A stretch of 58,927 bases of DNA from Deltaproteobacteria bacterium (GCA_016213015.1 JACRCE010000057.1:1-58927), one strand, 5' to 3'. Counted from the first letter of the stretch, positions 11,481 to 58,927 are shown. Numbers and translations: made by a program. The notes: a model not told the origin generated them from the sequence alone.

Positions 11481-11498
11481 CCGTGATAGGAAATTGTA

Positions 11499-19057: not shown

Positions 19058-19087
19058 AGTAAACGGATAATACGCGCGTTTTCCGGC

Positions 19088-28474: not shown

Positions 28475-28525
28475 GTAGTTATATCTCAACCGAACCATTT
28501 GTGTGCTTCTCAGGCCGGAGAACAG

Positions 28526-29395: not shown

Positions 29396-29398
29396 CAG

Positions 29399-29546
29399 TG
29401 CGTAAGAAAAACCAAATGACGTTGAAGGCTACTCAAAAAGCCGTAGATGCGAGGCGGCGAGGAAGCGATGAATGAGACGCACTTTGTTGTGCGTCGCAGT
29501 GAGGAGCGACGAGACAACAAAGCATATGCGGTTTTTTCAGCAGCAT
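29399..29546 (+). repeat. MITE-like element, family A, copy 2 (between flhG and fliA)
   Basis: '...CTCAAAAAGCCGTAGATGCGAGGCGG...GACGCACTTTGTTGTGCGTC...GAGACAACAAAGCATATGCGGTTTTTTCAGC'. Confidence 0.8.
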
Positions 29547-29580
29547 GGTAGTCAAAAAAAAGAAAGATAAGGATCGTGCA

Positions 29581-30315
29581 ATGAATACATACTGCACCGC
29601 GTTGAAACCGGAAAAGTCAAGGCTGTTGGGTGAACATCTGCACATCGTCAAGATAATCGCCTATCAGGTGGCCGGCGGATTGCCGCAGCATATAGACGTC
29701 AACGATCTGATAAGCGCGGGCATGATCGGCCTCCTCGAATCCGTGGAGAGGTTCGACTCGTCGCGGGGCGTGCAGTTCAACACCTATGCGTCTATCCGTG
29801 TGCGCGGCGCGATAATGGACGAATTGAGGAGCTTGGACTGGATGACGCGCTCCATGCGCGACAAGTCCAACCGTCTGGAAAAGGCATACGGCGCCATAGA
29901 GAAAAAGACGGGCAGGCCGGCCGGTGAAGAGGAGGTGGCCGAGTTGATGGGCATTACGACCGAGGAGTTTAACGCCCTTTTGAGCGAGGTGCGTTCCTTA
30001 AACGTCCTGAATCTCGAGGACATGGGGCTTAAAAATTTCGACGAGGGCATGGACATATTGGAGTGCATAAAGGACCCGAACGGCTGCGACCCTATGAGCG
30101 CGATGAAAACAACGGAGCTTAAAAGGAGCGTTGCCGAGGCGATAGCCTCGCTCCCCGAGAAGGAAAAGCTCATCATATCGCTTTACTACTACGAGGAGTT
30201 GACCCTCAAGGAGATCGGCAAGGTGCTCGATATAACCGAGTCGAGGGTCTGCCAGCTTCATACCCAGACCATGTTAAGGCTCAAGTCAAGGCTCAGTGTG
30301 TACGCAGATGCGTAA
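29581..30315 (+). CDS. fliA: Flagellar sigma factor FliA (sigma-28)
   Basis: 'LISAGMIGLLESVERFD...FNTYASIRVRGAIMDELRSLDW' and region 4 'LTLKEIGKVLDITESRVCQLH'. The tracked start at 29545 lies in a repeat. Confidence 0.85.
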   Translation: MNTYCTALKPEKSRLLGEHLHIVKIIAYQVAGGLPQHIDVNDLISAGMIGLLESVERFDSSRGVQFNTYASIRVRGAIMDELRSLDWMTRSMRDKSNRLEKAYGAIEKKTGRPAGEEEVAELMGITTEEFNALLSEVRSLNVLNLEDMGLKNFDEGMDILECIKDPNGCDPMSAMKTTELKRSVAEAIASLPEKEKLIISLYYYEELTLKEIGKVLDITESRVCQLHTQTMLRLKSRLSVYADA

Positions 30316-30471
30316 GCTTTTAGGCTGAAGGCGTTCAGGCTGTAGCGCGAAAATCGGCGGGATGGATGAAGCAAAGCGCGCCCAATCAAACGCCGCTGCC
30401 GATAATCGTCAACCATTTTCTGATATTATTGAAAAAATAGCGTATAATCTCACTGTAGAACCTTCCCCACA

Positions 30472-32409
30472 ATGAACGACATTGAAACCATAAAAAATCA
30501 ATTATCCGGCTCGGATCCGCTTGCGCGCAGGGATGCCTGCGCCTTGATAGGCGAGAGGCGGATCGTGGATTTTATCCCGGAGTTGGTCAGGATTATAAGG
30601 GATTCAAACCCGGGGGTCAGGGACGCGGCTCTCAACGCCCTTGTCTACATCGGCGGAGCTCGGGTGGCCGAGTCGATCGCGCATCTTCTCAGGGACAACG
30701 ACGCCTCAGTCCGAAATATGGCGATAGAGGTGCTTGAACTATCCGGTCGAGACGCCGTGTCCGTCGTAACCGCTCTGCTCGACGACGATGACGACGACGT
30801 CGTTAAATTTGCGGTGGACATACTTAAAAATATCAATGAAGCAGGCTCCTGCGCGGATGTCCTGAAATTGATGCGGCATCGGAACCCGAACGTGCGCGCC
30901 TCCGCCGCGATATGCCTTGGGCGTCTCAAACCCGCGGGCGCGTTGGAAGAGTTGATCAAGGCCATGGCCGATCATGAGGAGTGGGTGAGGTTTTCCGTGG
31001 TCGAGGGGCTGGGGCTGCTTAAAGACCCCCGCGCACAGCCGTCTCTTTTGTCCCTCATAGTCTCAGGCGAGGGCGTTTTGATGGAAGCGGCCATTGACGC
31101 CCTGAGTTGCATCGCAACGTCGGACGACGCGGCAGGTGTGCTTGTCGAGCTTGAACCGGCCATAGAGGCGGGAAGGGTCGTTGCTATCGGCTCGATAGTG
31201 GACCTGCTTGAAAAGGCGTTCTCTCCGGGCGCCGGATTCACGCCCTCCGACGACTTCAAGCGGATATATTTCAAATACCTTGCAACGGCGGTCAGGGAAG
31301 GGGACGAGCGCGTCAAACTGGACGCTCTGAGAGGCGTTGGCTTCCTTAAACTCGGCAGCGGCCTTGACCTGATATTCAAGTTTTTGGACGGTCTTAAAGA
31401 GCTTGACGAGGACACGGAAAGGCTACTTGTGGACACCGTCATATCGATAGCGCTTGCAAACCGTTCGGTCGTCATTCCGATGCTCCATGCGGGGATGGGC
31501 AATGGCGGGATAGGTTTCAAGGTATGCGTAAAGGCGATAGCGGGCATAAGGCCGCCCGAGTCGGTCGGGCCTCTTGCCGCGCTTATGAAGACCGCCAATA
31601 CTCACGAACTGAGGGACGTTGCCTCGGCGCTCGAGGCGATCGGCACAAAGGAGGCGTCCGCCGCGCTTACAGCCTCGTTGAAGGCTTCAGACGGTCATGC
31701 GCGCGGCATATCGGCGCGCGCCCTTGCCTCGCTTGCCGGCGAAGAGGCGGTAAAACCGTTGTTTGCCGCTCTCTTGGAGGAAAAATACAGGGACGTTGCC
31801 GAGGCAATAGTCGATGCGCTTGCGGGTATACCCTCCTTGGAAGCGCGCCAAGGCTTCTATCGCCTGTTAAGTTCTGAAAGGGAAGACCTGCGCGAGATGA
31901 GCGCGCGGGCATTGAGCTTTATCGGCGACGAGGAAGCGTCGGGGCGTCTTAAGTCGGCCGTTGACGATTCGAGCGCGGCGGTGAGAAAGTCGGTCTACAA
32001 TTCGCTTGCAAGGATAGGACTCCCGGACGCGGTGGACACGGTAATAGACGGATTGAAGGACCATGACGCCGGCGTCAGGCTTACGGTGTTGAAGGCGCTC
32101 GGCGGCTGGAGCGGCGCTCGGCTTCAGGCGGCCGTTCTCGGATGTCTTCAAGACGAGAACATGTGGGTAAGACACCATGCGGCTATGCTGTTGGGCGAGA
32201 TGGCGGATATGGACGCCGAGGACAGCGTCGTGGCTCTGCTTGACGACGACGAGGCGGTGGTAAAGGTCGCGGCCGCAAAGGCATTGGAGAGGATCGGCGG
32301 ACTCAAGGCCGTCTCCGCGCTGGAAAAACTGCTTAAATCCCCGGACGACAGGGTAGCGGCGGCGTCGCAAGCCGCGCTAAAGGCCATAAAATGCTCTCGC
32401 TTGGTCTAA
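30472..32409 (+). CDS. HEAT-repeat (PBS-lyase-like) protein, 645 aa
   Basis: Many repeats of 'D.D..VR..A..ALG.IG...A...L' type. The 3' end overlaps the cheR start by 19 nt. Confidence 0.75.
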   Translation: MNDIETIKNQLSGSDPLARRDACALIGERRIVDFIPELVRIIRDSNPGVRDAALNALVYIGGARVAESIAHLLRDNDASVRNMAIEVLELSGRDAVSVVTALLDDDDDDVVKFAVDILKNINEAGSCADVLKLMRHRNPNVRASAAICLGRLKPAGALEELIKAMADHEEWVRFSVVEGLGLLKDPRAQPSLLSLIVSGEGVLMEAAIDALSCIATSDDAAGVLVELEPAIEAGRVVAIGSIVDLLEKAFSPGAGFTPSDDFKRIYFKYLATAVREGDERVKLDALRGVGFLKLGSGLDLIFKFLDGLKELDEDTERLLVDTVISIALANRSVVIPMLHAGMGNGGIGFKVCVKAIAGIRPPESVGPLAALMKTANTHELRDVASALEAIGTKEASAALTASLKASDGHARGISARALASLAGEEAVKPLFAALLEEKYRDVAEAIVDALAGIPSLEARQGFYRLLSSEREDLREMSARALSFIGDEEASGRLKSAVDDSSAAVRKSVYNSLARIGLPDAVDTVIDGLKDHDAGVRLTVLKALGGWSGARLQAAVLGCLQDENMWVRHHAAMLLGEMADMDAEDSVVALLDDDEAVVKVAAAKALERIGGLKAVSALEKLLKSPDDRVAAASQAALKAIKCSRLV

Positions 32410-33248
32410 GCAACAGGCCAAAGCTCTCGCCTGAGACCTTCCGCCTTTTGAGGGACGTCATATATGTGCGTTCAGGCATCGCCTTTGCCGAGGCGAAGAC
32501 GTATTTGCTTGAGACCCGCCTGTCAAGGCGGCTTGAGATCAGGGGTCTCAAGACCTTCGAGGATTACTATTATTTTTTGACGTACGATCCTGAGCGCGAA
32601 CAGGAGTTTACCCAGCTCCTGAACGTGATAGTCACGAACGAGACCAGTTTTTTCCGCGATCAGACCCAGCTTGACGTCTTCAGCAAAGGCGTAGTGCCGC
32701 GTATTATGGAAGAAAAATCGAGGAGCGGCTCCAAAAATCTGCGTATCTGGAGCGCGGCCTGTTCGACTGGCGAAGAGCCTTATACGCTGGCCATGCTTCT
32801 TATGGAGGCCGGTCTGCCGGCAAAGGGCTGGACCATCGAGATCGTGGCCAGCGACATAAGCGAGATAGTGCTCCGGGCCGCGGAGGCCGGCCATTACGAC
32901 AAATATTCGCTCAGGAACACCCCTGATGTTTATCAGAAAAAATATTTTTCAAACAGCGCGGATGCCTTCTCCATAAAGGAGTCGGTGCGAGGATTCGTCA
33001 GGTACAAGCGCATCAATCTGATAGAGGCAAACGATACGCGGTCGGTTATTGGTTTCGACGTGATATTCTGCAGAAACGTATTCATATACTTCGACGACGT
33101 TTCCAAGAAGAGGGCCGTGAGCCATCTGTATGATTCCCTTGCAAGGGGCGGGTATCTGTTCGTGGGCTTTTCAGAGTCGCTCCATAATATAACGAGGCTT
33201 TTCAAACCGGTAAGCATTGACAGGTCGCTTGTGTACCAGAAGGCGTGA
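32391..33248 (+). CDS. cheR: Chemotaxis protein methyltransferase CheR
   Basis: 'TNETSFFRD', 'IWSAACSTGEEPYTLAM', 'IFCRNVFIYFD'. Confidence 0.9.
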   Translation: MLSLGLSNRPKLSPETFRLLRDVIYVRSGIAFAEAKTYLLETRLSRRLEIRGLKTFEDYYYFLTYDPEREQEFTQLLNVIVTNETSFFRDQTQLDVFSKGVVPRIMEEKSRSGSKNLRIWSAACSTGEEPYTLAMLLMEAGLPAKGWTIEIVASDISEIVLRAAEAGHYDKYSLRNTPDVYQKKYFSNSADAFSIKESVRGFVRYKRINLIEANDTRSVIGFDVIFCRNVFIYFDDVSKKRAVSHLYDSLARGGYLFVGFSESLHNITRLFKPVSIDRSLVYQKA

Positions 33249-33255
33249 GGCGCGT

Positions 33256-33627
33256 ATGGACAAGATGGAAAAGAAGGTGCTGATTATCGACGACTGCGAC
33301 ATGACGAGACGGCTCTTGAGTTACATCGTAAGAGCGAACGGCTACAAGATAATGAGCGCCACCAACGGCTTCGAGGCGCTTGAGATCATGGCGTCGAACC
33401 AGATAGACCTTGTAATCACGGACCTCAACATGCCGCAGATGGACGGGCTTGAGCTTACAAGGAACCTGAGGGCCGGGGAGGCGTACCACGAAATCCCCAT
33501 AATCATGGTGACAACCGAGGGCGGCGATGATAACATAAAAACCGGCATGACCGCCGGAGTGAGCGCCTATCTCGTAAAGCCCTTCAGCGCGCAAAAACTC
33601 CTTTACGAGATGTCGAAGCTGATATGA
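33256..33627 (+). CDS. CheY-like single-domain response regulator
   Basis: 'VLIIDDCDM', '[13 protein letters not shown]', 'MVTTEG', 'LVKPF'. Confidence 0.8.
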
Positions 33628-33683
33628 AGCCGGTATAAATCCCTTTGTTATTATAGTCACCCGCGGTACTATTTTTTTGACAG

Positions 33684-33833
33684 GTTGTAAGAAAAACCCA
33701 ATATTGCCGCAGGTTGCTCAAAAACGCCTAGATGCGAGGCGTCGAGGAGCGACGAATGAGACGCACTTTGTTGTGCGTCGTTCGTTCCGAGCGACGAGAC
33801 AACAAAGCAGATGGGCGTTTTTCAGCAACCTGC
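33684..33833 (+). repeat. MITE-like element, family A, copy 3 (between cheY-like and cheY)
   Basis: Same architecture and orientation as copy 2. Confidence 0.8.
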
Positions 33834-33856
33834 TAAAACTACCGGAGGTTTCAGGC

Positions 33857-34267
33857 ATGTACGACCAGAACATGAAGATACTCGTCGTTGACGACTTCGG
33901 CACCATGAGGAGGATAATCAAGAATATCCTGCTTGAGATCGGCTATCACAACATAGAGGAGGCCGAGGACGGCGAGATCGCCCTTCAGAAATTGAAGGCA
34001 GGCGGCATAGAGTTCGTGATTACCGATTGGAACATGCCCAACATGTCCGGTCTGGAGCTTCTTACCGCCATCAGGCTCGACGAGGCTTTGAAGGGTATTC
34101 CGGTTCTCATGGTAACGGCAGAGGCCGCCAAGGAGAACGTCGTCAACGCGGTGCAGGCAGGGGTGAGCAACTATATCGTCAAGCCGTTTACGGCAACTGT
34201 GCTCAAGGAGCGCGTGGACGCGATACTTGCCAAGGTCAAGGCCGCCCAGAACCAGAAATATAAATAA
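33857..34267 (+). CDS. cheY: Chemotaxis response regulator CheY (enterobacterial-type)
   Basis: '[14 protein letters not shown]', 'EEAEDG..AL.KL.AGG', '[16 protein letters not shown]', '[11 protein letters not shown]', 'IVKPFTA'. The upstream part of the tracked ORF is a repeat. Confidence 0.9.
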
Positions 34268-34306
34268 CGCCGTCGGTCATGTTCCCCTTGAAAGGAGATT
34301 TCAGCT

Positions 34307-34918
34307 ATGCCTGAAACGGAGTGGAGTGAACTCTTAAAACGTGTGAAAGATGAACTGGCGCTTCTCGTCAAGTTCGTGGACAAGACGCGAAACGGGCTTG
34401 ACAGCATCGAGTCCACCGTCAAACTCAGCACGGAAAAGTTTCCCGAGGCATCCCGTCAGATAGACCTCGTTGCCGGCGAGCTTGAGAATGCGGCCAATAA
34501 CATCATTACGCTCCTTGAGTCCATGATGCTGGAACAGGAAAGGACTCAGTACCTTATCAAATCGCTCTCGGAATGGATAAGTTCAGTGAGCGCCGACAAC
34601 AAAGACAAGGCATCTGACGCCATCGGCCAGCTTGGCGCCATAAACATAAAACTTAAAAAAGACCTGATGGAGATATTCTCAAACCTTTCCTTTCAGGACC
34701 TGACCGGCCAAAAATTGAGGAAGGTGATGACCAGCCTTTCATCGGTCGAGACCAGGCTTTTGGAACTTGCGCTCACCTTCGACATCGTAGGGGACAAGGG
34801 CAAGGTTCACAAGGCCAAGAAGGATATGCTCGACGTGCTCAGCGACGCTAAAAAGGAAGAGCCGATGAAATTGAATCAGGAGGTCGTTGATAAGATATTA
34901 AGGGAGCTTGGCGCGTAA
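34307..34918 (+). CDS. cheZ: CheZ-like CheY-P phosphatase
   Basis: Catalytic D-x3-Q in 'LSFQDLTGQKL', size about 200 aa, position directly after cheY. Confidence 0.6.
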   Translation: MPETEWSELLKRVKDELALLVKFVDKTRNGLDSIESTVKLSTEKFPEASRQIDLVAGELENAANNIITLLESMMLEQERTQYLIKSLSEWISSVSADNKDKASDAIGQLGAINIKLKKDLMEIFSNLSFQDLTGQKLRKVMTSLSSVETRLLELALTFDIVGDKGKVHKAKKDMLDVLSDAKKEEPMKLNQEVVDKILRELGA

Positions 34919-34920
34919 AG

Positions 34921-34980
34921 GCCGTGACCGTGAACGGCTAAACGAGATTGCAGCGCGGAGCGAGAACGACCGTGAAAGAT
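34921..34980. repeat. Short chimeric repeat (ACCGTGA units plus a family-C-like core)
   Basis: 'GCCGTGACCGTGAACGGC...GAGATTGCAGCGCGGAGCGAGAACGACCGTGAAAGAT'. Confidence 0.6.
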
Positions 34981-34982
34981 AA

Positions 34983-36653
34983 ATGTCCTTAAACGAGATG
35001 GACGACATTATAAACGACTTCATCGTGGAGGCCGGGGAGACGCTTGACGGCCTTGACAGGAAGTTCCTTGCCCTTGAAAAGTCCCCGCGCGACGCAACCC
35101 TCTTAAACGACATCTTCAGGTCCATGCACACCATCAAGGGAGCGGCCGGGTTTTTAGGCTTCCAGCAGATGGTCGAGGTGTCTCACGTCGCCGAAGACGT
35201 GCTCAACAGGCTCAGAAAAGGCGAGATGGTCGCCGACGCGGCCATAATGGACGCCCTGTTGCATTCCGTTGATATGGTCAAACGCCTCCTCAGAAATATA
35301 AAGGACAAAAATAGCGCTCAGGAGAATATCGAACCGATAACAAACGCGCTCAAGGCCGTGCTTGCACACGCGCCGCATAAGGCGCAAGATGCGGCGAAGC
35401 CGTCCGTGGCAACGCCCTCCGATGCGAAGGAGTCTCAGGAGGCAACGCTCAGGGACAAGGAGACGAGCCTCAGGGTTGATATCGAAAGGCTTGACGCGGT
35501 CTTGAATCTTGCCGGAGAGCTGGTGCTCTCGCGGAACAGGTTGTTGCGCCTCGGCTCAAAGGTTCACGAAAGCAGGCTCGACGACGCGCTTTCCTCGCAG
35601 TTGGGAGAGGCACTCGCCTCGCTTGACCTCGTTACCTCCGATCTGCAGCTTGCGGTGATGAAGATGAGGATGCAGCCCATCGCAAAGGTGTTCAACAGAT
35701 TCCCGCGCATGGTCAGGGACCTTGCCAGACAGCACAACAAGGAAATCGAGCTTGTCGTTACCGGACAGGAGACGGAACTCGACAAGACGGTCATCGAGGA
35801 GATCGGCGATCCGCTGGTGCATCTCATAAGAAATGCGGTTGATCACGGCATGGAGGAGACCGGGGAGCGCGCATCGAAGGGCAAGCCGCGCACCGGCACG
35901 ATACGGTTATCGGCCTCTCAGGAGGGCAGGAACATACTCGTGTCCGTGAGCGACGACGGGCGCGGCATGGACCCGTCGTTGATAAAACGCTCGGCCATGG
36001 ACAAGGGGCTTATATCGGCCGGGGAGGCGGAAGCGCTCTCGGCCAGGGAGGCGTTGAACCTCATATTCATCCCTGGTTTTTCAACCGCCAAGAAGGTGTC
36101 GAACCTTTCAGGGAGAGGCGTGGGCATGGACGTGGTCAAGACCAACATATCGCGCATCAACGGCAGCATCGGCATCGAGTCCGAACCCGGCAAAGGCACG
36201 AAGATAGAGTTCAGGCTGCCTCTGACGCTGGCCATCATACAGGCGCTGACCGTCGAGGTCAACGGAGAGGTCTACGGCATCCCGCTTTCCACGGTCGTCG
36301 AGAATATCAGGATACGAACCGACGAGATAAAGACCGTTAACGGCAAAGAGGTCATCCATCTCAGGAACAGGGTGTTTCCGGTCATGAGGCTCGGCTCGCT
36401 CGTCTCGGCGAGCGAGGTACAGAGAGACTCCGCATGGAAGTATATCGTCATTGCCGGCATAGGAGAGAGGTCATTCGGGCTTCTCGTGGACAAGTTGAAC
36501 GGCCAGGAAGAGATAGTCATGAAGTCGATGGGCGAATATCTCAAGGGCACCGAGGGCATTGCCGGCGCGTGCATCACGGGCGACGGAAACGTAATACTCA
36601 TCCTTGACGTGGCGGGTCTCCTTGAGGCGCTTGCAAGGACGTATGCGTACTGA
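34983..36653 (+). CDS. cheA: Chemotaxis histidine kinase CheA (556 aa, no recognisable P2 domain)
   Basis: Hpt 'FRSMHTIKGAAG'. 'DPLVHLIRNAVDHGME', 'GRGVGMDVV', P5 CheW-like. Only about 40 aa link Hpt to P3. Confidence 0.9.
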   Translation: MSLNEMDDIINDFIVEAGETLDGLDRKFLALEKSPRDATLLNDIFRSMHTIKGAAGFLGFQQMVEVSHVAEDVLNRLRKGEMVADAAIMDALLHSVDMVKRLLRNIKDKNSAQENIEPITNALKAVLAHAPHKAQDAAKPSVATPSDAKESQEATLRDKETSLRVDIERLDAVLNLAGELVLSRNRLLRLGSKVHESRLDDALSSQLGEALASLDLVTSDLQLAVMKMRMQPIAKVFNRFPRMVRDLARQHNKEIELVVTGQETELDKTVIEEIGDPLVHLIRNAVDHGMEETGERASKGKPRTGTIRLSASQEGRNILVSVSDDGRGMDPSLIKRSAMDKGLISAGEAEALSAREALNLIFIPGFSTAKKVSNLSGRGVGMDVVKTNISRINGSIGIESEPGKGTKIEFRLPLTLAIIQALTVEVNGEVYGIPLSTVVENIRIRTDEIKTVNGKEVIHLRNRVFPVMRLGSLVSASEVQRDSAWKYIVIAGIGERSFGLLVDKLNGQEEIVMKSMGEYLKGTEGIAGACITGDGNVILILDVAGLLEALARTYAY

Positions 36654-36654
36654 C

Positions 36655-36690
36655 GAAGGTTAGAGACGGTTGAGAAACGGTTGAAGAAGG
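36655..36690. repeat. Heptad-unit array (GGTTGAN) between cheA and cheB
   Basis: 'GAAGGTTAGAGACGGTTGAGAAACGGTTGAAGAAGG'. Confidence 0.55.
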
Positions 36691-36698
36691 AAGATTAA

Positions 36699-37745
36699 GT
36701 GCCCAAATTAAAAGTGCTCATCGTTGACGACTCAGCGTTCATGCGCAGGGTCTTAAAGCAGATGTTGGAGACGGACCCGTATATAGAGGTGGCAGGCTCT
36801 GCCCGTGATGGCGCCGAAGGCGTGGAGATGTGCGCTTCTCTTTCTCCTGACGTGGTAACGATGGACGTCGAGATGCCCAAGATGGACGGGCTTGAGGCGA
36901 CCCGTCTGATAATGGAGAGGTTTCCGACGCCGATATTGATCGTCAGTTCCCTTACTCTGGAAGGCGCGCAGGCGACGTTCGACGCCCTTGACAGGGGAGC
37001 CGTGGACTATATCTCAAAAAACCTCGTCTCGTCGGCGGTGGACGTCTTGAAGATTCAGGACGAACTCATCGCCAAGGTAAAGGCGGTCGGGCACAGGGGA
37101 AAGACCGGGCGTTGGCTAAGGGCATTCAGAAAACCGGACGCGCCCGTAATCGTCAACAAACGTTACGGCACGCAAAAGATCGGCTTTGTGGCGATAGGCG
37201 CTTCAACGGGCGGGCCAAGAGCCATTCAGGAGGTGCTCTCCCACCTGCCTGCCGACCTCGATACGCCTTTCTTGATCGCTGTGCACATGCCAAAGGCGTT
37301 TACCGGTTCATTCGCGGAACGCCTCGACACGCTATGTAAACTCCCGGTCAAGGAGGCCGAGCACGGCGAGATTATAAGGACGAGGCAGGTGCTTTTAAGT
37401 CCCGGAGGGTCGCAAACAAGGATTAAAAGAAAAGGCGGCACGAATTTTTGCGTTGACATATCCGACGACCCGCATGATGCGCTGTACAGACCCTCCGTTG
37501 ACATCTCCATGAGTTCGATAGCCGATTGTTATCCGGGACGCTCGCTCGGCGTGATATTGACCGGCATGGGACATGACGGAGTCGAAGGCATGAAGGCCAT
37601 CAAGGAGCGCGGAGGCAAGACCATAGCGCAGGACGCCGAGACAAGCACGATATTCGGAATGCCAAAGGCGGTAATAGACGCGGGTATGGCGGATAAGGTG
37701 CTCGCCCTCGACAAGATTGCCGCTGAGATTGTCAACATGATATGA
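36699..37745 (+). CDS. cheB: Chemotaxis methylesterase/response regulator CheB
   Basis: GTG start. 'VLIVDDS...VVTMDVEMPKMDG', 'VAIGASTGG', 'TGMGHDG'. Confidence 0.9.
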   Translation: MPKLKVLIVDDSAFMRRVLKQMLETDPYIEVAGSARDGAEGVEMCASLSPDVVTMDVEMPKMDGLEATRLIMERFPTPILIVSSLTLEGAQATFDALDRGAVDYISKNLVSSAVDVLKIQDELIAKVKAVGHRGKTGRWLRAFRKPDAPVIVNKRYGTQKIGFVAIGASTGGPRAIQEVLSHLPADLDTPFLIAVHMPKAFTGSFAERLDTLCKLPVKEAEHGEIIRTRQVLLSPGGSQTRIKRKGGTNFCVDISDDPHDALYRPSVDISMSSIADCYPGRSLGVILTGMGHDGVEGMKAIKERGGKTIAQDAETSTIFGMPKAVIDAGMADKVLALDKIAAEIVNMI

Positions 37746-37803
37746 ATGTGCTATGCTTACAGTGAATGCACTCTTTTTTGTGCATGACAGAATCGTTGTA
37801 AAT

Positions 37804-37866
37804 ACCGTGTCAATGACCGTTGGCCGTTAAAAATTTTTTCACGGCTCACGGTCACGGTTCACGGCC
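37804..37866. repeat. Heptad-unit palindrome (CACGGT variant) between cheB and cheW
   Basis: 'ACCGTGTCAATGACCGTTGGCCGTTaaaaattttttCACGGCTCACGGTCACGGTTCACGGCC'. Confidence 0.7.
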
Positions 37867-37885
37867 TTTTAGAGAGGAGGCTGAT

Positions 37886-38359
37886 ATGGAGGCTGCAAAG
37901 GAAAAAGAGGTCTTGCAACTCGTTACATTCAGGCTTGGACAGGAGGAGTTTTCTCTCGACATATTGAAGGTTCAGGAGATAATACGCCACATGGAGCTTA
38001 CGCGCGTTCCGAGGACGCCGGATTTCGTGGAGGGCGTAATAAACCTGAGGGGCAGGGTGATACCGGTGCTTGACCTTAGAAAAAGGTTCGGACTGCCGGG
38101 CGCCGAGGATACGAGCGCCACGCGGATAATCGTGGTCGAGGTCTCCGGCGTTACCGTGGGACTCAAGGTTGACGGCGTGTCCGAGGTCTTACGCATCAAC
38201 GCCGACACGGTCGAGCCGCCGCCCGCGCTGGTTACGAACATCGAGTCCGACTACATAAAAGGCGTCGGGAAACTCGACAACCGGCTGCTTATACTGCTTG
38301 ATGTTTCCAAGATACTAAGCAGATCCGAAAAGGACGCGCTCGGCAAGGTGGTTGTTTAA
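37886..38359 (+). CDS. cheW: Chemotaxis coupling protein CheW
   Basis: ATG 37886 follows GAGAGGAGG. 'LVTFRLGQEEFSLDILKVQEI...VPRTPDFVEGVINLRGRVIPVLD'. Confidence 0.9.
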   Translation: MEAAKEKEVLQLVTFRLGQEEFSLDILKVQEIIRHMELTRVPRTPDFVEGVINLRGRVIPVLDLRKRFGLPGAEDTSATRIIVVEVSGVTVGLKVDGVSEVLRINADTVEPPPALVTNIESDYIKGVGKLDNRLLILLDVSKILSRSEKDALGKVVV

Positions 38360-38362
38360 TAG

Positions 38363-38560
38363 GTTGTTGAAAAAGCAAATATTGACAAAGGCTGTTCAAA
38401 AAGCCGCAGATGCGAGGCGGCAAGGAGCGACGAATGAGCCCAGCACCACTTTGTTGCACGAGGGAATTTGTCAAGCAACATGCTTTCGTAATCCAAAGTG
38501 GTGCTGGGCGCAGTTCTGAGCGACGAGACAACAAAGCAGATGCGGCTTTTTCAACAGCCG
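38363..38560 (+). repeat. MITE-like element, family A, copy 4 (between cheW and mcp), centre replaced by a family-B hairpin
   Basis: Family A arms flank nt 38438-38509. Confidence 0.8.
38438..38509. repeat. Hairpin element, family B, copy 2 (inside family A copy 4)
   Basis: 16-bp stem GCCCAGCACCACTTTG / CAAAGTGGTGCTGGGC with a 40-nt loop related to the copy 1 loop. Confidence 0.8.
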
Positions 38561-38582
38561 TCTAAGGAACCAAGGAGGTTTT

Positions 38583-40664
38583 ATGAGCATACAATCGGTC
38601 AAGGCAAGGCTGTTGGGGAGCTATCTTTTCCTCATACTTCTTTTTATCATCCAGATACCCATAGTCTATCTTCTCGTTGTGCAGATGAGCAAGAAATACG
38701 CGCAGATAGTCGAGGTGGCCGCGTTAAGAAAACGCTCGATCGAGATAAACTATGTCCTGAACCGGCATATCATGAACAGGGAGGACGCGCTTGAAGAGGT
38801 CTTTCAAACGAAGATGGCCGAGTTCGATCAGACGCTTGTCAGGTTGAAGACCGGCTGGGGAGAGGTGCCGCCGATAACCGGCGAAGCCTCTCTCGACAAG
38901 TATAACGGCGTCATGCAGAAGTGGACGCCCATGCGCTCGACGCTCAATGCCGCGATGGACGCTGGCGATAAGCTGAGGGAGAGCATGAACGAACTGGATG
39001 CCGGCGCGTTCCCGTTCATCGGCAAGTTGAACGAGATAGTCGCGGGTTTCAGCGTTCTCAAGGACGGCGGGAACGGGAAAAGGGTGGATGTAGCCGGCGC
39101 TCAGAGGATGAAGACCATGAAGCTTGCGTACCTTCTGGAGCGATATGCGCGGTCCAACGATAAGCTCGATGAAATCGGCGCGCAGATAGACGATACCATG
39201 AAGGACCTTGAAATCAACTACGCGGCGCTTAAAAACGGTTCCGTTGCGCTCAAAATTTCGCCGCTCAAGGATAGGGCACTACTCAACAAATTCGTCGAAG
39301 CCGAGGCCGTATATGCCAAGAGAAAGGCGCTCATCCTTTCCACGATGGAATATAAGAGCGATTTCAGCAAGTTCACCAACGAGCTTTCAAACGTGCATAC
39401 CCCGCAGATGATAGCCGCGACAGAGGCGCTTACCGCCGAAATAGTCGCAGGGGCCGTCAACTCGGCCATGAAGGGCGTACTGTTCATGGCGCTTGTGCTT
39501 GTCGTCTCGGCCGGATGCGCCGCGTTTTTCATCTGGATGACCAATCATCAGGTGTTGACGCCCATCCTCACGATAAAGGAGACGGTGGACGGTTTTGCGA
39601 GCGGCGATCTGTCGCTTAGGTCGGGTGTGAAGGTAACGCTCCTCGGCAAGGAGTTGAATGACGAGATAACCGGATTGAGCAACAGCGTTGACTCGATGGC
39701 GATACGGATGTCCTCCGTCATAGGCAGGATAACCGATTCGTCGAGCCAGCTTGCCTCGGCCGCCGAGGAACTCGCCGCGTCATCCACGCAGATAGCCTCC
39801 GGGGCCGATAAACAGTCGGGGCAGACCGTGCAGGTCGCCTCTGCCATGGAGGAGATGAACGCCACGGTCGTCGAGGTAGCCAAGAATTCGCAGCAGGTTT
39901 CAGACGCGGCCAAGAGCGCACAAGACATCGCCCTTAAAGGCGGCACGGTAGTCAATCAGGCTGTCAGCGCGATGCAGGAGGTCTCCGTTTCAACCAATAT
40001 GACGGCGGACACCATAAGGAAGCTCGGCAAAGGCTCGGAGGAGATAGGCAGTATCGTGTCGGTCATCAACGACATCGCGGACCAGACGAACCTTCTCGCT
40101 CTCAACGCGGCCATAGAGGCCGCAAGGGCCGGGGAGCAGGGCAGGGGTTTTGCGGTAGTCGCGGACGAGGTGAGAAAACTCGCGGAGAGGACCACAAAGG
40201 CCACAAAAGAGATAAGCGAGATGATAAAGGCCATACAGTCCGAAACGACCAAGGCCGTTACAGCGATGGGCGAGGGGGCCTCAAAGGTCGAAAACGGCGT
40301 GAGGCTGGCCAATGAGGCGGGCGATTCGTTGAAGAGCATAGTCAAGAGCGTCGAGTACGTGAGCGGCATGATAACGCATATCGCCACGAGCGCCGAGGAG
40401 CAAAGCTCCACGACCGACGAGATAACGCAGAACATGGACTCTATCGCCGAGGTCGCAAAGGGCAACGTGGCCGCGATAGCCGAGGTGTCCCGCGCAACCA
40501 CGGACATGGCGCGTCTGGCCTCCGAACTAAAGGAGCTTGTTACGGGCTTCAAGACGCGCGGGCAAGGCGTCGTGGTGCCTATTCGCGATAAGCCGCGGGA
40601 CGCGGGTAACGCAATGGCCGGATCGGGCCTGAGCGCGGCCTCGCTTTTGACGAGAAAAGGCTGA
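38583..40664 (+). CDS. mcp: Methyl-accepting chemotaxis protein (large periplasmic helical sensor, HAMP)
   Basis: '[36 protein letters not shown]'. AAGGAGG RBS. Confidence 0.9.
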
Positions 40665-53106: not shown

Positions 53107-53463
53107 ATGGCAAGATACGATGGAGACTTAACAATGATTACCGAAGAAACGATCAAAGAGGCCGCGAAACGGCTTGCAGATAAGTTTCATCCGGACCGGA
53201 TTATCCTTTTCGGTTCTTATGCGAGGGGCACGGCGGACAAGCACAGCGACGTTGACCTGCTCGTGATATGCCGGGTTAAGAAAAATAGAAGGAAGCTGGC
53301 GAATGAGATGGATATGACGCTATGGGGGCTTGAAATGGCTAGGGATATTATAATCCTTACGCCCGAAGAGTTTGAACGTGATAAGCATATCCCAGGCACC
53401 ATAGCAAGGCCGGCATGGAAAGAAGGCAAGGTCATGTATGAGCATAAAAAGACAAGACATTGA
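53107..53463 (+). CDS. Nucleotidyltransferase-domain protein (MNT-type antitoxin)
   Basis: 'LFGSYARGTADKHSDVDLLV'. Confidence 0.75.
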   Translation: MARYDGDLTMITEETIKEAAKRLADKFHPDRIILFGSYARGTADKHSDVDLLVICRVKKNRRKLANEMDMTLWGLEMARDIIILTPEEFERDKHIPGTIARPAWKEGKVMYEHKKTRH

Positions 53464-53854
53464 AATAAAGGTGCGCGAGTGGACTTCCTTTGCCGATGAG
53501 GATTTAAGGGTTGCCCGTCAGGCCCTTAAACTTTCAAGTAGTTGTCCTTACAGGATCGTTGCATATCATGCTCAACAATGCGCGGAGAAATATTTAAAGG
53601 CGTTCTTGGTCTATAAGAAAAAAGACTTTCCTTATACCCATAATATAGCGCGTCTGCTGGAATTATGTCAGCATCATGGTTCGTGGCCTAATGATCTGCT
53701 GGTTGCGGCAGAATTGACCTCTTATGCCGTTACCGCTCGCTATCCCGGAGAAGACACAGTGAGCAGAACAGAGGCGTTAAAAGCGGTTGAATCGGCCTCT
53801 CTCGCAAGAAAAACCGTAAGGTCTGCCTTAAAGCAGGAGGGTTTGATTTTGTGA
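53438..53854 (+). CDS. HEPN-domain protein (partner of the preceding NTase)
   Basis: 'AYHAQQCAEKYLKAFL...YTHNIARLLE'. 26-nt overlap with the NTase gene. Confidence 0.7.
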   Translation: MSIKRQDIEIKVREWTSFADEDLRVARQALKLSSSCPYRIVAYHAQQCAEKYLKAFLVYKKKDFPYTHNIARLLELCQHHGSWPNDLLVAAELTSYAVTARYPGEDTVSRTEALKAVESASLARKTVRSALKQEGLIL

Positions 53855-53893
53855 GCGTTGCCTCTATCGGCAGCCACTAAAAGGAGTCTTTAC

Positions 53894-54079
53894 ATGCCAC
53901 ATACGCACGATCATGAGGAGTACCGGAAGATAGAAGTCCTGATTGAACAAGACCAGCTTGAACTGTTAACCGCTCTCGCGGACGAGTACAGGGAAAAACT
54001 CGGCAAGGGGTGGGACCTTAGCGCCGTCGTAAGGGTGGCCGTGGGGGATTTTTTGACTAAGATGGGGAAGATGAGCTGA
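53894..54079 (+). CDS. Small ribbon-helix-helix (CopG-like) protein, tentative
   Basis: 61 aa. AAGGAG RBS. 'RKIEVLIEQDQLELLTALADE' fits a beta-strand then helix pattern. Confidence 0.4.
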   Translation: MPHTHDHEEYRKIEVLIEQDQLELLTALADEYREKLGKGWDLSAVVRVAVGDFLTKMGKMS

Positions 54080-54083
54080 CCGA

Positions 54084-55166
54084 ATGTATTCAAACTACCT
54101 GACCCAAGTCAAAGGCCGCGTGGATTCAAATAAGGACTGCGGCGTTGACGAGATGCGCTCTCTTGTCGACAAGGCTGAGGCGCGCCTTTTCGGCGAGGCC
54201 GGGCGCTTCGAGACCTTTCACTGGAGCGCCAACATCCACGGCGTAGTCATCAGGCTCGTTACCAACTCAAGGCACCTTTATGAGTTCTGGGTTGAAAACT
54301 GGTATCCGGCCCCGCGCTCCCATACCGTGCTTCCTCACGGGGTCATCTACGCCGTAACCGGCATCTCAGGCGAGGCCCCGCGCGCCCACTACAACCACGA
54401 GACAAAGACGGCCGTGTTCGTCAACACCGAATACTACGGCCAGTGCAAGAGCTGGGCGCTCGGCATGGCCGCCGATATATTGGAGACCCAGCACGGCATA
54501 CATTCCATACACGGCTCATGCGCCGTGGTCAAGGGCAAGGGCGTCGTTATAATCGCCCCGACCGGCACCGGGAAATCAACGCATACATGGGGGTTGATGC
54601 AGCTGCCCGACGGCAAGATTCACTCGGACGACTGGATATTCCTTCAGTACAAGAAGGGGCTTGCCATGGCCGACATCTCGGAGAGAAAGTTCTACCTCCG
54701 CACGGACATGGTAAGGAGCTTTCCTGAGATAGCCCCTCTGCTGAAAAAAAGCATGTGCGAGAACGTGGTTGACAGCGACTTTACGGCCTTCGGCAACTCA
54801 AGGGCGCTCCTTGACCCGGAATGGATAGCCGGGCCCGATAAGTTCGTGGAGAGAACGGCCGTCGCGTCCGTAGTCCTATTGAGGCGCGACAAGGAATCGC
54901 CGCCGGAACTCAGGCTCAACGCCGATGACGCGCTGCGTATCCTTGAACAGGGCAGGGTGCTCTCGCTTGCGGGCTCCGGCGCGAAGGACGGGGAGTTCAC
55001 TTACGAGCCGTACTACAACCCGTATCTACTCGTCAGAAGGAATAAGATGCAGAACGACTTCTTCAGGCAACTGTTCTCAGCCGCGACATGTCATATCTTG
55101 AATACCGGAGTCGAGGACGTGAGCCAGACTCAATCGCGCATAAGACGCATCGTGGATGAGGCATGA
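54084..55166 (+). CDS. HPr-kinase/PEPCK-fold P-loop protein of unknown function
   Basis: 'HGSCAVVKGKGVVIIAPTGTGKSTHTWGL...GKIHSDDWIFL' parallels the HprK C-domain (P-loop followed by DD). Confidence 0.45.
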   Translation: MYSNYLTQVKGRVDSNKDCGVDEMRSLVDKAEARLFGEAGRFETFHWSANIHGVVIRLVTNSRHLYEFWVENWYPAPRSHTVLPHGVIYAVTGISGEAPRAHYNHETKTAVFVNTEYYGQCKSWALGMAADILETQHGIHSIHGSCAVVKGKGVVIIAPTGTGKSTHTWGLMQLPDGKIHSDDWIFLQYKKGLAMADISERKFYLRTDMVRSFPEIAPLLKKSMCENVVDSDFTAFGNSRALLDPEWIAGPDKFVERTAVASVVLLRRDKESPPELRLNADDALRILEQGRVLSLAGSGAKDGEFTYEPYYNPYLLVRRNKMQNDFFRQLFSAATCHILNTGVEDVSQTQSRIRRIVDEA

Positions 55167-55371: not shown

Positions 55372-55695
55372 ATGTCAGATGGCTACATAATGGTGCTCAT
55401 CACAGTATCAAAGCCTGAGGAAGGCGAGGCAATAGCCAAAAAAGTGGTTGAGGAAGGGCTTGCGGCATGTTGCAATATAGTCTCAGGGCTTCGTTCGATA
55501 TACAGTTGGGAAGGCAAGTTGTGCAACGAGCCTGAGGCGTTGTGTATCTTCAAGACCCGCGCATCCATGTTCGACAGGCTCAAGGACAGGATAAAGGAGT
55601 TGCACAGCTACAAGGTTCCCGAGATAATCTCAATCGACATAAAGAACGGTCTTGCCGAGTACCTTGGCTGGATTGACGAGAGCACCAACGGTTAA
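55372..55695 (+). CDS. cutA: Divalent-cation tolerance protein CutA
   Basis: 'EEGLAACCNI......SIYSWEGK......E..L..KT', 'YKVPEIISI'. Confidence 0.8.
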   Translation: MSDGYIMVLITVSKPEEGEAIAKKVVEEGLAACCNIVSGLRSIYSWEGKLCNEPEALCIFKTRASMFDRLKDRIKELHSYKVPEIISIDIKNGLAEYLGWIDESTNG

Positions 55696-56171
55696 AGCGT
55701 CTGACTCCCTGGGCCTGCCGCTCCTCCGATCGCATATCTTATAATCCCTGTTTCATTTATAAAGAACCACTTCATCGAGGCGTTGTTGTTCGTGGGGTTG
55801 GCATTCACTGTGAAGGCAGGGGTTCCGTCGCCATTCGTTCCGGCGGTCAGCGTGAAGGTATAGTCCTTTTCAATGCGCACCGGCCCGCCTGGGCCGTTTG
55901 TCAGTACGCCGGTTGTTTCAAGTACGTCAAAGTCCGCGGTGTATCCCCCTCCCGCGTCCTGTTTGTATAATTCCTCGGATTTATTGATTGACGTAAGATA
56001 TGATATTGCCGCGGTCTCTCTCGCTTTATTCAGAACGTTGCCGTAGAGCGTTACGGATATGGCGGCAAGGATGGCGATTATGCTTACAACCGCAAGGAGT
56101 TCAAGCAGGGTAAAGCCGTTATCTGCCACGGCTTCCCATCTTGCCGAGTGCCATTTGGTCGAACTTTTCAC
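55692..56171 (-). CDS. Type IV pilin / T2SS pseudopilin-like protein with a prepilin N-terminus
   Basis: 'ADNG|FTLLELLAVVSIIAILAAI': Gly-Phe cleavage site and Glu at +5. Confidence 0.8.
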   Translation of the reverse strand: MKSSTKWHSARWEAVADNGFTLLELLAVVSIIAILAAISVTLYGNVLNKARETAAISYLTSINKSEELYKQDAGGGYTADFDVLETTGVLTNGPGGPVRIEKDYTFTLTAGTNGDGTPAFTVNANPTNNNASMKWFFINETGIIRYAIGGAAGPGSQTL

Positions 56172-56172
56172 G

Positions 56173-56763
56173 TTATTTCCTGTTTATACCGCCTGAGAAG
56201 GCGTCGGGAGAGGCGCTCAACCTGCTCATAAGGGTCTTTATCGCCTCCAGAGCCTCATCCTTTTTCCCTTCTTCGATCAAGCGTCTTATTTGTTCAAGGG
56301 TTGCGTTAAGAGAGGCGTGAAGCGCGTTGTCGCCTGAGCGCGCTTCATGCAGAAAGTCCGAGAGCCTGTTGAATATGCCTTCTATCTCAACGAGGTTGTC
56401 GCGTCTTCTCAGGCGTATGTGTTGGCCGAACCTGCCGGCCATGAACTCTTCCGCCGTTTTTTCAAACCTATAGATAGGCCCGGCTATACGGTGGGTTACG
56501 AATATCATGTATACCGCGGTCAGGATGGCGACTATGATTATGCTTATCCATATCCTCGAGTGCAGGTACAGCACTGTATGCGCCGCAATGGCCTGCTCCT
56601 GCAGCCCGGTTGAATAGTACAGGTCTCGGTAAAGAGGGTAAAAGATGATTGCGCCAAGCGCTATCGAATATAAGATGACGAAGCCGAACGCCTTCACGGC
56701 CGCTTCCATCTGGTAGCTCGGCTTGATTAGAAAGCGTCTCCTTCTGTGCTGTTCCATGTTCAT
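56173..56763 (-). CDS. 2-TM membrane protein with a HAMP-like linker
   Basis: Two hydrophobic segments, then 'HRIAGPIYRFEKTAEEFMAGRFG..I.LRRRDNLVEIEGIFNRL'. Confidence 0.5.
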   Translation of the reverse strand: MNMEQHRRRRFLIKPSYQMEAAVKAFGFVILYSIALGAIIFYPLYRDLYYSTGLQEQAIAAHTVLYLHSRIWISIIIVAILTAVYMIFVTHRIAGPIYRFEKTAEEFMAGRFGQHIRLRRRDNLVEIEGIFNRLSDFLHEARSGDNALHASLNATLEQIRRLIEEGKKDEALEAIKTLMSRLSASPDAFSGGINRK

Positions 56764-56814
56764 GGCAACGCCCCGTTGACTTATAATTCAATGTAAAGAT
56801 GAGTTATTGACGTG

Positions 56815-56842
56815 ATTATACCATGTTTTGATTGGATTTCAA
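56815..56842 (-). promoter_or_regulatory. Candidate extended -10 sigma-70 promoter for the HAMP-protein/pilin genes
   Basis: Minus strand TTGAAA-N16-(TGG)TATAAT. Confidence 0.5.
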
Positions 56843-56916
56843 CCCCACTCTTACCTCTCCTTGAAAAAAGGGGAGGAGTTGGTTGCAGGGCGGGCAATGC
56901 CTGTCCTACAACCCGG

Positions 56917-58927
56917 TCAATACCCCACATTCGGCAGGTTGGTGTCTGTCGTGTCCTTGTAAACTATACGGTGGTAGTTTCCAGAGTAGTTGCCGGTTGT
57001 CTCGAACCATGTGTAGTACATCCTGTATTTGCCGTCCGGCAACAGGATTATCTCCGGATCCATGGCGCTGTCTGTGCTGGAGCCGCCTGTATTCAGGGTT
57101 TTCATCAAAGAAAGGTTTGTCGGCCCGGGCAGGTTAGCGTCCGTCGTATCCTTGTACAGTATCCTCCAGCACGCGCAATTCGGCACATTGTCGCCATAGC
57201 CGTAATAGAGCCTGTAGCCGGTTGCGGTCTGCAAAACCTTGGGCCATGACGCCCTGTCGTATTGCGTCCCTCCCATGCCGAGGTCTATTGCCGAACCGAG
57301 GTTGGTATTGTCAGGCGGGTTGCCGTTGGTCGTGTCCCTGTAGGAAAGTTTTTCGTTGCTACTTACAAGGTTGGCGTAATACACGCGGTAGCCCCCGCCT
57401 GGACGCGCCACCACGTTCGGGTGCATCGTGCTGGTTCCGATAAGCTGAGTTGCCGCGCCGAGGTTTCCCGCGTTCGGCGGGTTTGTGTCCGTGGTGTCCC
57501 TGTACACGATGGTGTTGTTGCCGCCTGAAGCGCGGTTGTAGTATAGCCTGTAGCGTCCGTCGCCAAGTTGCACTATCTCCGGGCCGTATGCTTGATCACC
57601 CGATACGCCTATGCCGAGCAGTTGAAGCGGACTTGACGCGATGTTGGTGTCGTTCGGCGGGTTGGTGTCGCTGGTGTCTTTGTACCCGATATCCCAGAAA
57701 TTGGCTGATGTGTCCGATTTATAGGCGTAATACATCCTGTAACGGCCGTCGGATAGTTGCATAACCTCAGGGTTGGTGGCCCTGTCGTCCTTGGAAGTGC
57801 CTACTATGCCAGGATTCGTAGCAGGCACTTTCGGACCAAGGTTTATTTTTGATATCAGCGCGTATAGCACGATGGTGTCGCCGAGGTTGTTGTTGTCTAT
57901 CCTGTGAAGCGACTGTTTGAGGTGGCAACTGCTCGTGCCGCACCCTTTAAGGCTTCCGCCGCAACTGCTTTCATTGGTCATAAGGCCGCCATAATAGTAA
58001 TGGCATGCGTTGCATATATAGTTGTGGCTCGCGGACGTAATATCATTCCCGTTTACGCGCTTTCTAAAAAGGCTGGACAAGGGGGAGCCGTGAGGTTCAT
58101 GGCAGTTTACGCAGGCAAGCACGAAGTTTATCCCGGCTATCCTGTCGGCCATCTCATACGGGGCTTTTGTATATACCGCAAAGCCCCTGCCTATAGGCTC
58201 GTTGTAAAACGGACTTGCCGCGTCGGTATCGGGCGTGTTGCAGTTGTTGACATAAGGACTCCCGGGGGCGCAGCATCCGAAGGGCGAGACGTTTGCCGCG
58301 TCAAGGCCGTGCGGCTCCCAGCCTGAGGCCGTAACGCAGTCGCCGTCCGGCTGGCTTCCGCTTGCACAGTAGTTCTTATTAACGCCGGGCGGGAAGGCGT
58401 TGCCGGCCGAGTCCTTGCCCCAATATATCGGCAGGTGGGTGCCGACCTGATGTTGGTGGCAGTCAAGGCAGAAGGTTACGTAGTCCGGGAGCGCGTTGCC
58501 GTCAGGCTCGTACCCGCCCGTTGTGCCGCCGTAAGGCGGCCTGTATATTGCATATTGATCAAAGGGCATGTTGGTTGCTCCTAACCCATACCCTCTGTCC
58601 TTGTTGAACTGCCAGCCGCCAGTGCCTATGTTGGGGAAGTGTTGCAAAAGGCCGTTCATCTTCTCTTCCGGGTCGTCTCCCCATAGGTCTCCGGGCTGAT
58701 AGGACATTCCCCATGAGGAAGGCGGCCATTGGTAGGGATAGGTTGCGGGGTTCGAGAGGTAGAGCGACTGGGTTACGCCCGGTAATACAATCGGCGTTGG
58801 CGAGCCAGTGCCGCTCGTGGCGTCGTCCCACCTGCCAGAGGCGAGGTGCGGGTTATGACAGGTGGTGCACTCGACGGCGTAATGAACGTTTATAGGCGTA
58901 GCCGCGTCTGCATGGTAGTATGATGTC
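56917..58927 (-). CDS. Large secreted-type multi-CXXCH (c-type-heme-motif) protein with five C-terminal tandem repeats of about 55 aa. The N-terminus lies beyond the window
   Basis: My translation shows the frame stays open from 58707 to 58927 ('...VECTTCHNPH...'). CXXCH x4 plus one CX4CH. Repeats of type 'PE.VQL.DGRYR.YY...I.Y.DT.DTNPPN'. Confidence 0.75.
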   Translation of the reverse strand, partial: TSYYHADAATPINVHYAVECTTCHNPHLASGRWDDATSGTGSPTPIVLPGVTQSLYLSNPATYPYQWPPSSWGMSYQPGDLWGDDPEEKMNGLLQHFPNIGTGGWQFNKDRGYGLGATNMPFDQYAIYRPPYGGTTGGYEPDGNALPDYVTFCLDCHQHQVGTHLPIYWGKDSAGNAFPPGVNKNYCASGSQPDGDCVTASGWEPHGLDAANVSPFGCCAPGSPYVNNCNTPDTDAASPFYNEPIGRGFAVYTKAPYEMADRIAGINFVLACVNCHEPHGSPLSSLFRKRVNGNDITSASHNYICNACHYYYGGLMTNESSCGGSLKGCGTSSCHLKQSLHRIDNNNLGDTIVLYALISKINLGPKVPATNPGIVGTSKDDRATNPEVMQLSDGRYRMYYAYKSDTSANFWDIGYKDTSDTNPPNDTNIASSPLQLLGIGVSGDQAYGPEIVQLGDGRYRLYYNRASGGNNTIVYRDTTDTNPPNAGNLGAATQLIGTSTMHPNVVARPGGGYRVYYANLVSSNEKLSYRDTTNGNPPDNTNLGSAIDLGMGGTQYDRASWPKVLQTATGYRLYYGYGDNVPNCACWRILYKDTTDANLPGPTNLSLMKTLNTGGSSTDSAMDPEIILLPDGKYRMYYTWFETTGNYSGNYHRIVYKDTTDTNLPNVGY

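Follow-up and report, generated by a model that had tools for sequence, protein, structure and literature searches.

Electron exchange of microbes with minerals, electrodes or partner cells relies mainly on multiheme cytochromes, and to our knowledge little is understood about how these proteins are placed at their targets. The paired-CXXCH multiheme cytochromes occur in Geobacter- and Shewanella-type genomes. Exported proteins that fuse a heme c module to a beta-propeller include cytochrome cd1 nitrite reductase, quinohemoprotein alcohol dehydrogenase and hydrazine synthase, and in these enzymes the propeller has six to eight blades and houses the catalytic cofactor or site. Propellers also occur as separate proteins: six- and seven-bladed propellers of the NHL type are conserved partners of multiheme cytochromes, such as DFE_0451/0452/0463 of Desulfovibrio ferrophilus (PMC8322314) and UetH/UetI of 'Ca. 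Tenderia' (bioRxiv 10.1101/2022.05.06.490989). A role in interactions or adhesion has been proposed for these partners (PMC8322314; bioRxiv 10.1101/2022.05.06.490989). In this study, we examine a gene at the end of a 58,927-nucleotide contig from a member of the Deltaproteobacteria (GCA_016213015.1, JACRCE010000057.1:1-58927; the whole contig is hereafter called the window), which encodes a multiheme c-type cytochrome with a predicted five-bladed beta-propeller at its C-terminus and is followed on the same strand by genes for a HAMP-like membrane protein and a type IV prepilin.

The protein represents a new domain architecture of exported multiheme cytochromes, in which an unannotated heme core is joined to an unannotated propeller family. 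No precedent was found in the literature searched for either a LamG domain or a five-bladed propeller fused to a multiheme cytochrome.

The 3' part of the cytochrome gene occupies positions 56917..58926 of the minus strand (669 codons plus stop) and is open at the contig end; the 5' part lies beyond the contig edge, and the open reading frame (ORF) in the window covers approximately the C-terminal two-thirds of the protein. This ORF contains several conserved heme-attachment motifs, four of the CXXCH type and one CX4CH, which are numbered 5 to 9 of the nine described below: CTTCH, followed by NPH (motif 5; 58855-58869), CLDCH (motif 6; 58456-58470), CVNCH, followed by EPH (motif 7; 58099-58113), CNACH (motif 8; 58000-58014) and the CX4CH motif CGTSSCH (motif 9; 57922-57942), all on the minus strand and assigned by translation and by alignment of the cytochromes (alignment A1). 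Because all five are invariant in the six closest homologues (P0002-P0007), they are not chance occurrences. Among the ORFs of at least 80 residues in the whole 58.9-kb window no other contains a CXXCH, leaving the cytochrome ORF as the sole carrier. The original prediction for this DNA, made from the sequence alone, had described a multi-CXXCH ORF running open to the window edge, and each of its motifs was confirmed in place.

Profile searches bear on the type of cytochrome involved. The window part of the protein passes PF09699 (Paired_CXXCH_1) marginally, at 21.4 bits versus a cut-off of 20.6, and stays below the cut-off of TIGR01905 (21.0 versus 25.2), which the N-terminal fragment introduced below, P0025, passes with 29.4. 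Thus the earlier assignment to the paired-CXXCH type holds. A match to the CxxxxCH family had been suggested as well, and this part failed: neither PF09698 nor TIGR01904 matched the window protein or P0025 at E-values up to 1. Two distant relatives (P0011 and P0017) do carry PF09698.

The N-terminal part of the protein was located by homology search on a separate 53,510-base contig of the same source. It is a 405-residue fragment, P0025, and its C-terminal 47 residues match those at the start of the window ORF without a single difference. The two contigs overlap by exactly 141 nt at the most conserved heme motif, CTTCHNPHLASGRWDD (window 58786-58927), and the exactness of this overlap and its position on that motif suggest a branch in the assembly graph, which may reflect a paralogue or a strain variant. 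An exact search of metagenome contigs with the 83-nt contig-end sequence returned no match, and neither did an exact lookup of P0025. From the sequence identity we infer that the two contigs join within the gene. The joined protein would comprise 1027 codons, or about 990 from the likelier start MHLLNIRS, and would contain eight CXXCH motifs and one CX4CH, that is, nine heme motifs. The N-terminus of P0025 reads MHLLNIRSLFSGILLSLSVIILFPLHADA and is followed by an invariant mature start, TGG.F..EHGG; a hydrophobic stretch leads to LHADA, and the homologues align at the cleavage-like junction LHADA|TGG. With this signal peptide-like N-terminus, export of the cytochrome is plausible.

The heme domain spans approximately 650 residues with nine motifs, or about 70 residues per heme. 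The six closest homologues share 51-73% identity over this domain, and all nine motif positions are invariant among them. Ten further histidines outside of the motifs are likewise invariant (H39, H99, H180, H219, H309, H310, H347, H526, H599 and H661 in A1 numbering). This number would suffice to give all nine hemes bis-His ligation; judging by this count, the domain most likely transfers electrons along a chain of bis-His hemes and is not a catalytic heme enzyme. Additional invariant blocks are WPGGQYG, PKQLVEL, GTGGWxFN and EPHG. The cytochrome relatives score 33-53 bits with PF09699/TIGR01905-type profiles, all clear passes, and the heme domain is an uncharacterised branch of the paired-CXXCH cytochromes. 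More remote relatives (about 30% identity; L007-L009, L017, L025-L028 and L034) consist of the core alone, with nine CXXCH in ORFs of 704-735 residues and no C-terminal module; one of them, L027, ends at a contig edge with seven motifs in 506 residues. A scan of metagenomes yielded solely distant cytochrome relatives, at 21-39% identity, and these were used only for the count of adjacent prepilins given below.

The C-terminal domain extends over 305 residues (56920..57834, minus strand), as delimited by blade alignment, AlphaFold2 and Foldseek. Its five tandem repeats make up the last 284 residues of the protein (residues 386-669; nt 56920-57771), with blade starts at 57771, 57582, 57423, 57246 and 57057 on the minus strand. 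The repeats are 46-63 residues long (about 55), and pairwise identity between blades is 32-55%. A single-sequence AlphaFold2 model was unusable (predicted local distance difference test, pLDDT, of 56) and was replaced by a model built with a 25-sequence alignment of blade blocks, which reached a pLDDT of 92.7 and a predicted TM-score (pTM) of 0.92. This model contains 18 strands of at least three residues by DSSP, grouped in five repeat units. Its top Foldseek matches in the PDB are all five-bladed propellers, from the glycoside hydrolase (GH) families GH43, GH62, GH130 and GH159 and from levansucrase (GH68), with E-values of 3e-9 to 1e-6, TMq of 0.54-0.71 and sequence identities of 9-16%. The final blade ends after its third strand, and a segment ahead of blade 1, NPGIVGTS (57793-57816, minus strand), aligns in register with the LGxGxS found after the other blades; this register, together with the short last blade, fits the usual closure of a propeller. 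With high confidence, then, the model predicts that the repeats form a closed five-bladed beta-propeller, and the earlier comparison of the repeats to such blades, drawn from the repeat pattern, is borne out.

The propeller family itself is small. A HMMER scan of 1.84 billion representative proteins recovered only 176 relatives of the repeat region, 22 of them with E-values below 1e-30, and a blade hidden Markov model (HMM) finds the blades of most closer relatives in blocks of 5, 10 or 15. No Pfam model matches it. In the 25-sequence family alignment the only invariant residues are the Arg and Tyr of the GxYRxYY strand, and neither Asp nor Glu appears among the invariant or near-invariant columns. 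Each blade bears a family-specific Y(R/K)DTTDTN(P/L)P loop, and conservation is repetitive in a five-fold manner, the pattern that would be expected of a multivalent binding module and not of a single active site. Among the relatives are lipoproteins of 1500-1800 residues (P0084-P0088) in which the propeller is repeated in tandem, as two or three copies, and which have no Pfam domain; the blade HMM counts 10, 12 or 15 blades in them, and exactly 15 in three of the five.

The tail of the cytochrome varies among its relatives. The C-terminus of P0006 is a Laminin_G_3 domain (E 5.5e-13), that of P0002 is LamG-like at a sub-threshold score, and the tails of P0003-P0005 align to the P0002 tail in alignment A1. 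P0007 lacks a C-terminal module and has N-terminal Ig-like repeats instead. Conversely, most other proteins with this propeller are lipoproteins, or else very large proteins that contain LamG, Calx-beta or He_PIG domains, and propeller and LamG occur together in P0008, P0099 and P0100. CXXCH was found in none of the 147 other propeller representatives; the cytochrome fusion is therefore unique in that library, and it is known from one contig only. Since the tails of the relatives differ while the core persists, the core is constant and the tail swappable between domains that are typically adhesive. One of the propeller carriers, P0099 (L023 3183-7064), is a 1293-residue protein that begins with a prepilin-type motif and also contains this five-bladed propeller and three Laminin_G_3 domains; it resembles a giant pilin-like adhesin with a propeller, and a second pilin gene lies 1.1 kb upstream of it.

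The explanation that we favor, with slightly better than even confidence, is that of an exported nonaheme cytochrome that uses its propeller as a non-catalytic binding or targeting module and that stands beside the HAMP-like and prepilin genes only incidentally. The protein, of about 990-1027 residues, would be exported across the cytoplasmic membrane, with a final location that is presumably the periplasm or the cell surface. Heme would be attached at the nine motifs, and the resulting bis-His chain would carry electrons. The propeller would act in a lectin-like manner, tethering the heme chain to a ligand outside of the cytoplasmic membrane, such as a polysaccharide, a cell surface, a mineral or a partner protein. 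A non-catalytic binding role is suggested by three features: the five blades are nearly identical at their conserved positions, the propeller lacks conserved catalytic acids of the GH43 type, and the closest relatives have a LamG-like (concanavalin-type) domain or nothing at that position. The HAMP-like and prepilin genes would form an independent module, probably with its own promoter.

Several observations weigh against this explanation. Neither a single-sequence search nor a seven-sequence profile detected a relative of the heme domain in the PDB. For its N-terminal half, and hence for the signal peptide-like start and five of the nine heme motifs, the protein depends on a different contig that is joined through an identical overlap of 141 nt on the most conserved motif, and this join could be to a strain variant or a paralogue. 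Downstream of the cytochrome stop there is a hairpin with no T-run beside it, but no intrinsic terminator was detected; transcription may thus read through from the cytochrome into the HAMP-like and pilin genes. Lastly, the prepilin-type N-terminus of the propeller relative P0099 is a faint hint of a connection to pili.

In a bolder form of the same idea, which we put forward tentatively as a possibility, the lectin-like propeller would address a nine-heme wire to an extracellular ligand, and the relatives would exchange one targeting domain for another (propeller, LamG or Ig-like repeats). The ligand of such a targeted conduit might be an exopolysaccharide, a partner cell, a mineral or even the neighboring pilus. 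If so, the propeller would represent a new family of adhesion domains, with five equivalent sites formed from the Y(R/K)DTTDTNPP loops.

It is also conceivable, though we consider it rather unlikely, that the protein is strictly periplasmic and that the propeller is a docking platform for other proteins, much as the separate NHL-type propellers may be. The N-terminus does resemble a type I signal peptide, with no lipobox or other surface-sorting signal seen, and the separate six- and seven-bladed propellers show that conserved partnerships of this kind exist (PMC8322314; bioRxiv 10.1101/2022.05.06.490989). However, the other carriers of the propeller are mostly of kinds typical of cell surfaces, that is, the lipoproteins and giant LamG, Calx-beta and He_PIG proteins noted above, and the window locus shows no gene for a porin or a periplasmic partner; downstream of the cytochrome in particular, the window holds neither an outer-membrane beta-barrel gene nor one for a periplasmic or outer cytochrome partner. 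One cytochrome relative has a Porin_O_P gene 4 kb away.

A catalytic or cofactor-binding propeller that exchanges electrons with the heme chain, or a glycosidase of the GH43 kind with a redox module attached, is an unlikely alternative. Fusions of heme c to catalytic propellers are well known, the nearest structures are glycoside hydrolases, and there is a weak similarity to GH43 at the level of single blades: by sequence or profile, the propeller has only marginal blade matches to GH43 proteins in the PDB (4kc7, E 0.012), and NF053746 (GH43) gives a 27-residue local match with an E-value of 1.9e-5 and 23.7 bits against a cut-off of 750. Yet the identity to the GH43/GH62 structures is merely 9-16%, and catalysis by GH43 enzymes depends on three acids, a general base Asp, a pKa-modulating Asp and a general acid Glu, whereas the family alignment has no acidic column that is invariant or nearly so, and the propeller fails this catalytic test. 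Membership in GH43 (or GH62/GH130) was rejected on that ground and because no GH Pfam model matches. Furthermore, the conserved positions recur five-fold, as they do in lectin-type propellers, and are not concentrated in one asymmetric active site, the close relatives hold a LamG-like domain or nothing at the same position, and no other protein with this propeller combines it with a redox module.

The genes downstream of the cytochrome raise a further alternative, in which the cytochrome, HAMP-like protein and pilin form one operon for a redox-active appendage, with the cytochrome decorating or docking on a pilus or pseudopilus through its propeller. We regard this as improbable. The first of these genes (56173..56763, minus strand) encodes a 196-residue membrane protein, defined from profiles and translation, with two hydrophobic segments, a HAMP-like region and a coiled-coil-like tail. 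The motif HRIAGPIYR follows the second hydrophobic segment, and HRIAGPxYR is invariant in the homologues. The protein had been described as a HAMP protein with two transmembrane segments, and the two hydrophobic segments are indeed present; its PF00672 (HAMP) score is 15.5 bits, short of the gathering score of 25. Since the protein locally resembles the TM2-HAMP part of histidine kinases (WalK, E 8e-8) and has the HRIAGPxYR motif, it is labeled here as HAMP-like only. The prepilin gene (55692..56171, minus strand) follows after a gap of 2 nt and encodes 159 residues with the cleavage motif G|FTLLE; as had been predicted, it is a type IV prepilin, above the cut-offs of both PF07963 (27.8 versus 21.2) and TIGR02532 (32.2 versus 16.3), and its stop codon shares the TTAA at 55692-55695 with the stop of the convergent cutA gene.

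The three genes do lie on the same strand, the gap between the cytochrome and the HAMP-like gene is 153 nt, and no canonical terminator separates them; moreover, P0099 combines the propeller with a prepilin-type N-terminus 1.1 kb from another pilin gene. On the other side, the gap contains the extended -10 promoter candidate that the original prediction had pointed out (56815..56842, minus strand), a sigma-70-type sequence, TTGAAA, 16-nt spacer, TGgTATAAT, a candidate by consensus match only, in which 11 of the 12 hexamer positions agree and TG extends the -10 element. A motif scan of 36 cytochrome-anchored loci found no prepilin gene adjoining the cytochrome in any of them; in two of the 36 a prepilin lies 5-9 kb away. 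A lack of conserved adjacency to the pilin in related genomes had been named in advance as grounds for refuting the original prediction, and such a lack is what these loci show. The pseudopilin of locus L002 was examined as a possible pilin linkage and rejected, because this GspG-type gene lies on the opposite strand at a distance of 5.4 kb. The close relatives of the cytochrome are flanked instead by genes for a TPR protein, for a cytochrome c fused to DUF1573 and for a dCache histidine kinase together with a response regulator, a neighbor set that is conserved in L002, L003, L005 and the P0005/P0251 contig, and none has a HAMP-like or pilin gene next to it. A counterpart of the DUF1573-cytochrome c was sought from the source genome and was not found.

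The HAMP-like gene and prepilin have a distribution of their own. Homologues of the HAMP-like protein are few (P0232-P0236), in a very small family of seven clusters. In three of the four contexts with a readable downstream gene, a prepilin directly follows, and the genes around the pair are unrelated. The pair stands at window 55692-56763 (minus strand), L019 8001-9120, L020 1704-2782 and L021 1260-2338. The pair thus recurs without any cytochrome, and its recurrence in unrelated contexts identifies it as a conserved small two-gene module. This separate identity, together with the near-consensus promoter, makes its adjacency to the cytochrome most likely incidental, and the HAMP-like gene and prepilin are probably neighbors outside of the cytochrome unit. 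Among the scanned window ORFs (all except those at 17524-20572 and a few small ones), there are no genes for pilus assembly (PilB/GspE, PilC/GspF or PilM-Q/secretin) or for cytochrome maturation, both of which had been proposed as a check. Consequently, the earlier view of one gene string stands as to strand and proximity and falls as to a single functional unit. The adjacent pilin, which had been taken as a sign of an extracellular surface structure, loses that meaning with no adjacent prepilin in 36 loci, a pair that is conserved alone and a strong promoter candidate between the units. For annotation, the lesson is that a neighboring pilin should not count as evidence for a cytochrome-pilus apparatus.

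Finally, we give very little credence to the idea that the fusion is an assembly chimera: the contig stops inside the gene at a graph branch with an overlap of exactly 141 nt and the fusion is known from that contig alone, but the junction of heme domain and propeller lies about 1 kb inside the contig in an uninterrupted ORF, four CXXCH and the CX4CH are on the same contig as the propeller, and the regional GC content is within the range seen elsewhere in the window.

Elsewhere, the window contains chemotaxis clusters, signaling genes and purine genes. Two chemotaxis clusters on the plus strand (4649-13321 and 28499-40664) encode CheA, CheW, CheR, CheB, methyl-accepting chemotaxis proteins, CheY, CheZ and a FliA-like sigma factor; each is near a gene for a HEAT-repeat protein, and one of the methyl-accepting proteins has a PilJ-type N-terminal domain. 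Closer to the cytochrome, also on the plus strand, are a nucleotidyltransferase (MNT-type) and HEPN gene pair that resembles a toxin-antitoxin module (53107-53854) and, between this pair and cutA, a 73-residue ORF followed by a 360-residue ORF with the P-loop APTGTGKST and no Pfam match (53858-55166).

The broader interest of the locus lies in a conserved nine-heme core that is found with interchangeable tails of a binding type (the five-bladed propeller or a LamG-like domain) or with no tail. Should these tails be targeting modules, they would provide a simple modular rule for where heme wires are deployed and a new compact family of propeller domains for study. As neither the heme core nor the propeller has a solved or annotated relative at the sequence level, each is a reasonable target for structural genomics.

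How, then, does the protein compare with known systems? Like the paired-CXXCH cytochromes (PF09699/TIGR01905), it has repeated CXXCH motifs, often as CXXCHxPH, and an N-terminus that suggests export; unlike them, it spreads only nine motifs over a heme domain of about 650 residues, has extra invariant blocks and ends in a C-terminal domain without heme. It shares with the Geobacter CxxxxCH...CXXCH family (PF09698/TIGR01904) a single CX4CH (CGTSSCH) after a CXXCH, but the likeness stops at the bare motif, as neither profile matches. The propeller has the same fold as the five-bladed propellers of GH43/GH62 (clan GH-F), GH130 and GH32/68, and the blade motif P-x-V-x-L-x-D-G-x-Y-x-x-Y-Y is common to it and to GH43 blades; it differs from the GH43-type propellers in its strong five-fold internal sequence symmetry and in lacking both the conserved Asp/Asp/Glu and a GH Pfam match. 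Tachylectin-2 is an internally symmetric five-bladed lectin propeller, and the resemblance to it is conceptual only: five nearly identical blades would give five equivalent sites, and the binding that we propose is non-enzymatic. In contrast to the cd1-type enzymes, the window protein combines nine hemes with a propeller of only five blades that shows no sign of an active site. And unlike the propeller partners of D. ferrophilus and 'Ca. Tenderia', its propeller is five-bladed, belongs to another family and is fused to the cytochrome in cis.

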